NCBI RefSeq assembly: GCF_003334355.1
Contig: NZ_QOWP01000048.1
Source of the DNA: Escherichia coli
GTDB taxonomy: Bacteria; Pseudomonadota; Gammaproteobacteria; Enterobacterales; Enterobacteriaceae
Length of the DNA: 19,380 nt
Strand: one strand, 5' to 3'
The translations under genes and the position numbers were made by a program. Below, piece after piece: positions 17,176 to 17,514 of the stretch. The first letter of the stretch is position 1. Each line of letters opens with the position of its first letter. The notes under the pieces were generated by a model. That model ran no database searches and was not told the origin of the DNA. It worked only from the letters and a program-made list of their open reading frames with translations.

Positions 17176-17341
17176 GATTTTTCCTCTTTCACATAGTGGG
17201 TTCCACAGCAAAGAGACGCGGAACCCTGGAGTTGTTTAGGTATCCGGATGAACAACCAGACCGCAGCCGTGGCGTTGCATCGGATGAGATGGCGTATAAG
17301 TTCTACCTTTTGGTAAGACATGTCAACCCGAATTCTGAAAT

Positions 17342-17351
17342 TGGTTAACCA
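17342..17351. promoter_or_regulatory. UxuR/ExuR-type operator-like palindrome TGGTTAACCA
   Basis: Perfect TGGT-N2-ACCA palindrome in the uxuA-gntP divergent spacer. GntR/FadR-family operators are of TGGTnnACCA type (recalled from established knowledge). Confidence 0.5.
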
Positions 17352-17379
17352 CATCACAAGAATTTCACTCTCCTGGTTG

Positions 17380-17398
17380 TTGCTGCAAATTGCAGCAA
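17380..17398. promoter_or_regulatory. 19-bp perfect inverted repeat TTGCTGCAA-A-TTGCAGCAA (unknown operator or 5'UTR hairpin)
   Basis: Read directly; 9-bp arms are exact reverse complements around a single central base. Confidence 0.4.
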
Positions 17399-17427
17399 AA
17401 GGTAATCGATGGTTATTGATCAGAGGA

Positions 17428-17443
17428 TGTGACATTCATCGCA
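17428..17443. promoter_or_regulatory. CRP-like binding site TGTGA-N6-TCGCA
   Basis: One mismatch from the TGTGA-N6-TCACA consensus. Sits about 75-90 bp upstream of the gntP ATG, in a catabolic operon control region. Confidence 0.45.
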
Positions 17444-17447
17444 ACAA

Positions 17448-17457
17448 TGGTTGACCA
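17448..17457. promoter_or_regulatory. Second UxuR/ExuR-type operator-like palindrome TGGTTGACCA
   Basis: TGGT-N2-ACCA palindrome about 58 bp upstream of the gntP ATG. Confidence 0.5.
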
Positions 17458-17514
17458 ATTTACATAACATGTCGCCCAAAATAACAACGGTTCAACCAGG
17501 TAAGGTAAAACGTT

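Follow-up and report, generated by a model that had tools for sequence, protein, structure and literature searches.

The genes uxuA and gntP of Escherichia coli diverge from a common intergenic spacer, and the question raised by this locus is how much of the spacer is under regulatory constraint and whether a perfect palindrome within it represents a control element beyond those already recognized. The original prediction, made from the sequence of the window (the whole 19,380-nucleotide stretch of DNA analyzed here), described positions 17176–17514 as a uxuA–gntP divergent control region carrying two TGGT-N2-ACCA boxes, a CRP-like site and a 19-bp palindrome, the last of these being put forward as either an additional operator or a 5'UTR hairpin. 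Our main reading, to which we assign a probability of roughly 0.7, is that the spacer is built of two conserved promoter modules with an unconstrained linker between them, and that the palindrome lies in this linker without a regulatory role.

Results

Identity of the spacer and location of its elements

The window is of E. coli chromosomal origin and, by reference to the K-12 annotation, has the gene order uxuR-uxuB-uxuA/gntP/fimH. Positions 17176–17514 (339 bp) correspond in that annotation to the uxuA–gntP spacer, with uxuB and uxuR lying beyond uxuA and fimH beyond gntP. Of 5,426 complete E. coli genomes, 5,404 contain this segment as a single copy, with 95–100% identity. The segment is the already known and well-studied gntP/uxuAB divergent control region, and its identification in the original prediction is thus borne out by identity to annotated E. 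coli K-12. Direct reading of the sequence placed all four predicted motifs within it at the positions originally given; these are listed together with the other features of the locus in Table 1.

Table 1. Features of the uxuA–gntP control region and its surroundings (positions are those of the window)
Feature	Position	Strand	Remarks
Third UxuR-type box AAACTGGTCAACCAAATA, core at 14395–14404	14391–14408		uxuB–uxuR spacer, about 160 bp upstream of uxuR
uxuA coding sequence (mannonate dehydratase)	15991–17175	-	start codon at 17175; open reading frame list; 99–100% identity to annotated K-12 uxuA
Best OxyR consensus match in the whole window (13/20)	17296–17332		covers predicted uxuA -35/-10 and the invariant TACCAAAAGG block
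Predicted uxuA core promoter	17298–17326	-	-35 TTGACA 17326–17321, 17-bp spacer, -10 GAACTT 17303–17298; predicted start near 17290–17293
UxuR box 1 AAATTGGTTAACCACATC, core TGGTTAACCA at 17342–17351	17338–17355		just upstream of uxuA -35, about 55 bp upstream of predicted uxuA start
Weaker CRP-like site GGTTAACCACATCACA (two mismatches)	17343–17358		overlaps UxuR box 1; about -59 from predicted uxuA start
Perfect 19-bp palindrome TTGCTGCAAATTGCAGCAA (TTGCTGCAA-A-TTGCAGCAA)	17380–17398		9-1-9 inverted repeat in non-conserved linker
CRP site TGTGACATTCATCGCA	17428–17443		9/10 positions of the TGTGA-N6-TCACA consensus; centre about -41.5/-42.5 from predicted gntP start, about -144 from predicted uxuA start
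UxuR box 2 ACAATGGTTGACCAATTT, core TGGTTGACCA at 17448–17457	17444–17461		between CRP site and predicted gntP -10
Predicted gntP -10 TAACAT	17465–17470	+	predicted start near 17477–17478; invariant block in Escherichia/Citrobacter
TGGT-N3-ACCA-type box CGGTTCAACCA (one mismatch)	17488–17498		predicted gntP leader
gntP coding sequence (fructuronate/gluconate permease)	17515–18858	+	open reading frame list; K-12 identity; exact protein in the collection named GntP

UxuR-type boxes

Regulators of the FadR subfamily recognize A/T-rich palindromes with TKGT/ACMA boxes, in which the GT–AC distance is 2 nt for UxuR and 3 nt for ExuR (PMC4494728). Both boxes of the spacer are TKGT/ACMA palindromes with a GT–AC distance of 2 nt in their cores, and both are conserved at orthologous positions in related genomes. 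The pattern TGGTNNACCA occurs three times in the window where 0.23 occurrences were expected, a count reached in only one of 200 shuffled sequences. Genomic SELEX with purified UxuR yielded a single peak, in the gntP/uxuA spacer, at a resolution that does not assign individual boxes, and binding was weakened by glucuronate (PMC5934670); the legend to Fig. 4 of that paper refers to two UxuR-binding sites in the same operon. The third UxuR-type box of the window probably represents a site of uxuR autoregulation and the second SELEX site of that study.

The boxes were originally taken to be operators for UxuR and ExuR alike, and of this proposal the UxuR part stands, on 2-nt spacing and conservation, and the ExuR part does not, given the 3-nt distance of ExuR sites. 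The E. coli ExuR sites in PMC4494728 are those of uxaB, uxaCA, exuT and exuR plus one without a gene, with none for gntP or uxuA, and because of this and their N2 spacing both boxes are regarded here as UxuR-type rather than joint UxuR/ExuR sites. The sole candidate with a 3-nt GT–AC distance is the box at 17488–17498. It is not enriched by count, but since N3 is the ExuR-type spacing this box could be where ExuR acts on gntP. A perfect version is present in E. albertii, in a cryptic Escherichia clade (L091/L092) and in a divergent lineage labelled E. coli (L002); Citrobacter has TGGTTGAACCA and Edwardsiella has a perfect N2 box at this place.

CRP sites

Matches to the CRP pattern with at most one mismatch numbered five in the window against 2.8 expected and so were not enriched by count alone; support for the site at 17428–17443 comes instead from conservation and published ChIP-seq. 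The site is kept in Citrobacter and Edwardsiella, and PMC4287617 gives its exact reverse complement, TGCGATGAATGTCACA, as the sequence under a CRP ChIP-seq peak between gntP and uxuA in ETEC H10407. The identity of this 16-mer supports the TGTGA-N6-TCGCA motif of the original prediction as a genuine CRP site. Both gntP and uxuA are CRP SELEX targets and multiple CRP sites have been described in the gntP–uxuAB spacer (PMC3105977), in agreement with the further claim that both promoters are catabolite-controlled. The weaker CRP-like site overlapping UxuR box 1 lies near a class I position relative to the predicted uxuA start, and its TGTGA half is kept beside box 1 in Citrobacter, Enterobacter and Cedecea.

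Phylogenetic footprinting of the spacer

A scan for UxuA using one genome per species produced 80 loci; among these, a divergent uxuA–gntP pair was confined to Escherichia and a group of Citrobacter. Alignment of the spacers of E. coli, E. albertii and four Citrobacter, a comparison covering five non-coli Escherichia and Citrobacter lineages that are not independent of one another, revealed that both UxuR boxes, the CRP box, the TAACAT and TTGACA hexamers and a block downstream of box 1 (TTGACATGT..TACCAAAAGG..GAAYTTAT) are invariant or nearly so. The core of box 1 is also invariant in the cryptic Escherichia clades, and box 2, kept throughout Escherichia and Citrobacter, has a counterpart at the corresponding position of the gntP promoter of Edwardsiella. 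The linker that separates the CRP box from box 1, approximately 70 bp long and containing the palindrome, could not be aligned between Escherichia and Citrobacter. Even between Escherichia lineages the linker (17359–17427) has diverged by 24–43%, compared with 4–6% in uxuA DNA, with positions 17373–17379 especially variable, and we judge this divergence to be roughly neutral.

As a simple sigma-70 promoter and terminator scan returned nothing at its thresholds, the promoters were assigned from conservation, and it is the conservation across genera from which we infer two promoter modules. The gntP module would comprise the CRP box, UxuR box 2, at -29 to -20 relative to the predicted gntP start, and a TAACAT -10 element positioned 21 bp downstream of the CRP box. 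The Edwardsiella gntP gene is at least 90% identical and has a different neighbouring gene; its promoter has the CRP box, an N2 box and TAACAT in the same order, with an extra perfect box in the leader and without the palindrome. The uxuA module would comprise UxuR box 1 with its overlapping weak CRP half-site, followed by TTGACA-17-GAACTT. This box-plus-TTGACA layout recurs at the uxuA loci of Enterobacter, Cedecea and Shimwellia, and a TTGACA-17-GAAYTT/GATGTT arrangement follows a UxuR box in Citrobacter, Enterobacter sp. R1, Cedecea and Shimwellia. In full, uxuA of Enterobacter sp. R1, Cedecea, Enterobacter sp. Ag1 and Shimwellia is preceded by TGTGA, an N2 box, approximately 13 bp, TTGACA, 17 bp and one of GAACTT, GAATTT or GATGTT.

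PMC3578941 and PMC6389858, citing Zheng 2001, report that the uxuAB promoter has an OxyR site and is subject to OxyR-dependent repression. The best match to the OxyR consensus anywhere in the window coincides with the predicted uxuA core promoter (Table 1), and we would place the reported site there, a position that fits the reported repression of uxuAB.

Two further features of the region were observed. In the uxuA leader a 79-bp segment (approximately 17204–17282) was present in all Escherichia examined and absent from Citrobacter. It contains two predicted hairpins, one of which (GGGTTCC/GGAACCC, 17198–17226) adjoins the ribosome-binding site; the folding z-score of the leader was -2.2, and neither covariation among six Escherichia sequences nor an Rfam match was found. 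The second concerns L002 (positions 1–3000), in which uxuA DNA is 95.5% identical and the whole fim operon has been lost together with gntP. In this lineage nanS-nanM now abut the control region at approximately window position 17502, nanM being the adjoining gene; it retains the CRP box and UxuR box 2 and has mutations in the gntP -10 and the palindrome.

Constant spacing of the UxuR boxes

The centres of the two UxuR boxes (17346.5 and 17452.5) are 106 bp apart in Escherichia and 104–105 bp apart in Citrobacter despite the unalignable linker between them. The uxuA promoters of Enterobacter sp. R1, Cedecea and Enterobacter sp. Ag1 are likewise flanked by pairs of boxes, at distances of 102–105 bp. 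Such constancy suggests that UxuR may bind cooperatively or form a loop. A DNA-structural role for the palindrome, by cruciform extrusion or by phasing or bending of a repression loop between the boxes, would draw on this same conservation of distance, kept in Escherichia and Citrobacter although the linker sequence is not conserved, and on the recurrence of such box pairs at uxuA in other genera. However, Citrobacter keeps the spacing without the palindrome, which is accordingly not needed for it, and the palindrome is approximately 10 bp off the midpoint between the boxes. Arms of 9 bp are moreover short for cruciform extrusion in vivo, and UxuR looping is itself hypothetical, so that a structural role of this kind appears very improbable.

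Occurrence and conservation of the palindrome

The 19-bp palindrome is, as originally described, a perfect 9-1-9 inverted repeat, and so has the dyad symmetry of an operator. However, a window of this size and composition is expected to contain 1.0 perfect inverted repeat with arms no shorter than 9 bp and a loop no longer than 10 nt, and two were observed. The probability of at least one is 0.54 window-wide and 0.21 for loops of at most 1 nt, falling to approximately 0.02 when only the 339-bp spacer is counted. Since about one such repeat per window is expected by chance, the palindrome by itself is not strong evidence of function. The only other perfect repeat with 9-bp arms in the window, AGCGCAAGG-N9-CCTTGCGCT at 13423–13449, is found immediately beyond the uxuR stop codon, on the 3' side, and probably forms the stem of a terminator.

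Among about 5,400 complete E. coli genomes the 30-mer around the palindrome was found exactly in its K-12-type form in 4,202 and in the form present in the window in 1,111. The palindrome is intact in at least 98% of these genomes, with neighbouring position 17400 commonly polymorphic, and its symmetry is broken by G17395T in at least 43 genomes. It is also perfect in Escherichia sp. 93.0816, a close clade. In E. albertii there is one mismatch, an A at 17395; in the cryptic clade represented by L091/L092 there are two unpaired changes, at 17383 and 17392; and in L002 there are five differences from E. coli, leaving five of the nine arm pairs. The palindrome is absent from Citrobacter and Edwardsiella, both of which keep all the other elements.

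Position 17395 differs repeatedly: an A is present in both E. albertii and L002, most E. coli have the G that completes the palindrome, and no fewer than 43 E. coli genomes have a T. As A17395 is common to E. albertii and L002, the perfect palindrome looks to have been derived in E. coli from a quasi-palindrome symmetric at 18 of 19 positions. These data argue that it is probably an incidental, lineage-specific quasi-palindrome made perfect in E. coli by a single A-to-G change at 17395, and that it would have no regulatory role in the freely evolving linker.

Alternative readings of the palindrome

The proposal that the palindrome is an additional operator found little support. In its most favourable form the palindrome would be a young operator for a dimeric regulator specific to E. 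coli and its closest relatives, modulating gntP and/or uxuAB from about -90 (its centre, 17389, is approximately 88 bp upstream of the predicted gntP start and 98 bp upstream of the predicted uxuA start), possibly by contacting CRP or by stabilizing or antagonizing a UxuR loop. Its dyad symmetry, its near-fixation in E. coli, its perfection in Escherichia sp. 93.0816 and a core, TGCAAAT (17384–17390), that is unchanged in every Escherichia lineage seen are all in keeping with this. Relative to E. albertii the palindrome is also less diverged than its flanks, with 1/19 against 16/50 differences (Fisher p = 0.027), and it has decayed most in L002, the lineage without gntP, as a gntP-linked function predicts; both observations would be accounted for if an operator were present. 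The corresponding comparison was 2/19 against 15/50 for L091/L092 and 5/19 against 14/50 for L002, in which the palindrome is no better kept than its flanks. Against an operator stand the changes in these two Escherichia lineages, the absence of the palindrome from the orthologous Citrobacter and Edwardsiella control regions, in which every other element persists, and its expected occurrence by chance. We therefore consider the operator unlikely.

Nor could a binding protein or a wider regulon be matched to it. No second copy was found in E. coli genomes, either among exact copies or at E ≤ 10, and the palindrome matched none of the regulator motifs compared. It lacks the GT..AC core and is accordingly not of the GntR type (PMC4494728). 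It is not the best match to the CRP consensus, and OxyR was rejected as its binder, since the palindrome scored 10/20 against the 13/20 of the best match; nothing resembling the dyad is present in the uidA control region, leading to rejection of UidR/GusR. CytR, with TGCAA/TTGCA halves, had the wrong spacing and only 5/8 matches per octamer, and a sigma-54 promoter, FNR, NsrR, Fis, Cra and the LysR-type T-N11-A motif likewise did not appear to fit. A literature search for the palindrome sequence found no paper, and a search for papers pairing gntP with ChIP-exo found none.

Readings other than a cellular operator were rejected in the same way. A repeated or mobile element is at odds with one copy per genome, and a phage operator with the 2.9 million viral contigs of IMG/VR, in which the single match was unrelated and coding. 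A small open reading frame of 44 codons spanning the palindrome (17320–17454) is interrupted by stop codons in E. albertii and L002. An apparent second genomic match to the window-type 30-mer proved to be a chance look-alike inside epd. This 26-nt sequence, TGTTGCTGCAAAAAGCAGCACAAGGT (L099, 41–66), is located within the epd coding sequence and present in every E. coli genome, and its existence there indicates that near-palindromes of this type arise by chance.

The suggestion that the palindrome forms a 5'UTR hairpin was not supported, because it is located upstream of both predicted transcription starts. A hairpin might also act in the RNA of a leader, or in transcripts antisense to or upstream of gntP or uxuA; the sequence can pair into an 8-bp stem with a loop of 3 nt and, folded as DNA, has an energy of -8.3 kcal/mol (z = -3.5). 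However, the palindrome precedes both conserved promoter modules and has no terminator-like T-run, and an Rfam scan of 17000–17700 at E ≤ 1 gave no match. The substitutions seen in relatives (17381, 17383, 17391, 17392, 17395 and 17397) all break pairs and none is compensatory, so that base pairing has not been maintained as would be expected of a structured RNA. Such a hairpin is very improbable.

Discussion

The motifs of the uxuA–gntP spacer, their conservation and the published binding data for UxuR and CRP are consistent with a simple scheme in which each divergent gene has its own compact module. At gntP, CRP in the class II activation position would activate transcription, and UxuR on box 2 would block RNA polymerase, since this box sits between the CRP site and the -10 element. 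Fructuronate or glucuronate would release UxuR from the spacer, and catabolite control would be supplied by cAMP-CRP. Control of gntP/uxuAB by UxuR and CRP is textbook E. coli regulation and in this respect the present analysis adds little beyond annotation. Footprinting across Escherichia, Citrobacter and Edwardsiella does, however, cleanly separate the constrained modules from a free linker, and for those concerned with hexuronate regulation the UxuR box spacing of approximately 104–106 bp, the N3-type box in the gntP leader and the CRP half-site fused to UxuR box 1 may be of interest. Were the palindrome an operator after all, gntP/uxuAB would be subject to a new regulatory signal, received between the two conserved CRP/UxuR modules. 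The more general point is that a perfect 19-bp palindrome, even in a famous control region, is not by itself evidence of a further regulator.

On the preferred reading, in which the palindrome is incidental, it resembles quasi-palindromes perfected by template switching in that the presumed ancestor was symmetric at 18 of 19 positions, a single change at the mismatch made it perfect in E. coli, and the same position has changed again in at least 43 genomes, where it is T. The Ripley and Lovett laboratories have reportedly found that template-switch mutation perfects quasi-palindromes in bacterial intergenic DNA. Ordinary point substitution, on the other hand, explains the data for position 17395 equally well.

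The remaining elements correspond closely to known systems. Compared with the UxuR operators of the E. coli hexuronate regulon, which belong to the FadR subfamily of GntR regulators (Bates Utz 2004, Suvorova 2011 and RegPrecise, in the summary given by PMC4494728), the boxes described here are alike in their palindromic TKGT/ACMA form, 2-nt GT–AC distance and A/T-rich flanks, in their location at gntP, uxuAB and uxuR, in their orthologous conservation and in the SELEX peak within the spacer; there is no material difference, and the boxes are the known sites. The gntP promoter is similar to class II CRP-dependent promoters, in which CRP binds near -41.5, in having a CRP site centred 41–42 bp upstream of the start predicted from TAACAT, and this site is occupied in vivo in ETEC (PMC4287617). 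It differs from them in that a repressor box occupies the interval from the CRP site to the -10 element, with the caveat that the gntP start is a predicted one. Finally, as in divergons of the FadR/HutC type (PMC4494728), two sites are present in one intergenic region, each adjoining one of the divergent promoters, whereas here the distance between the sites is held at 104–106 bp across genera although the linker that separates them is not conserved.
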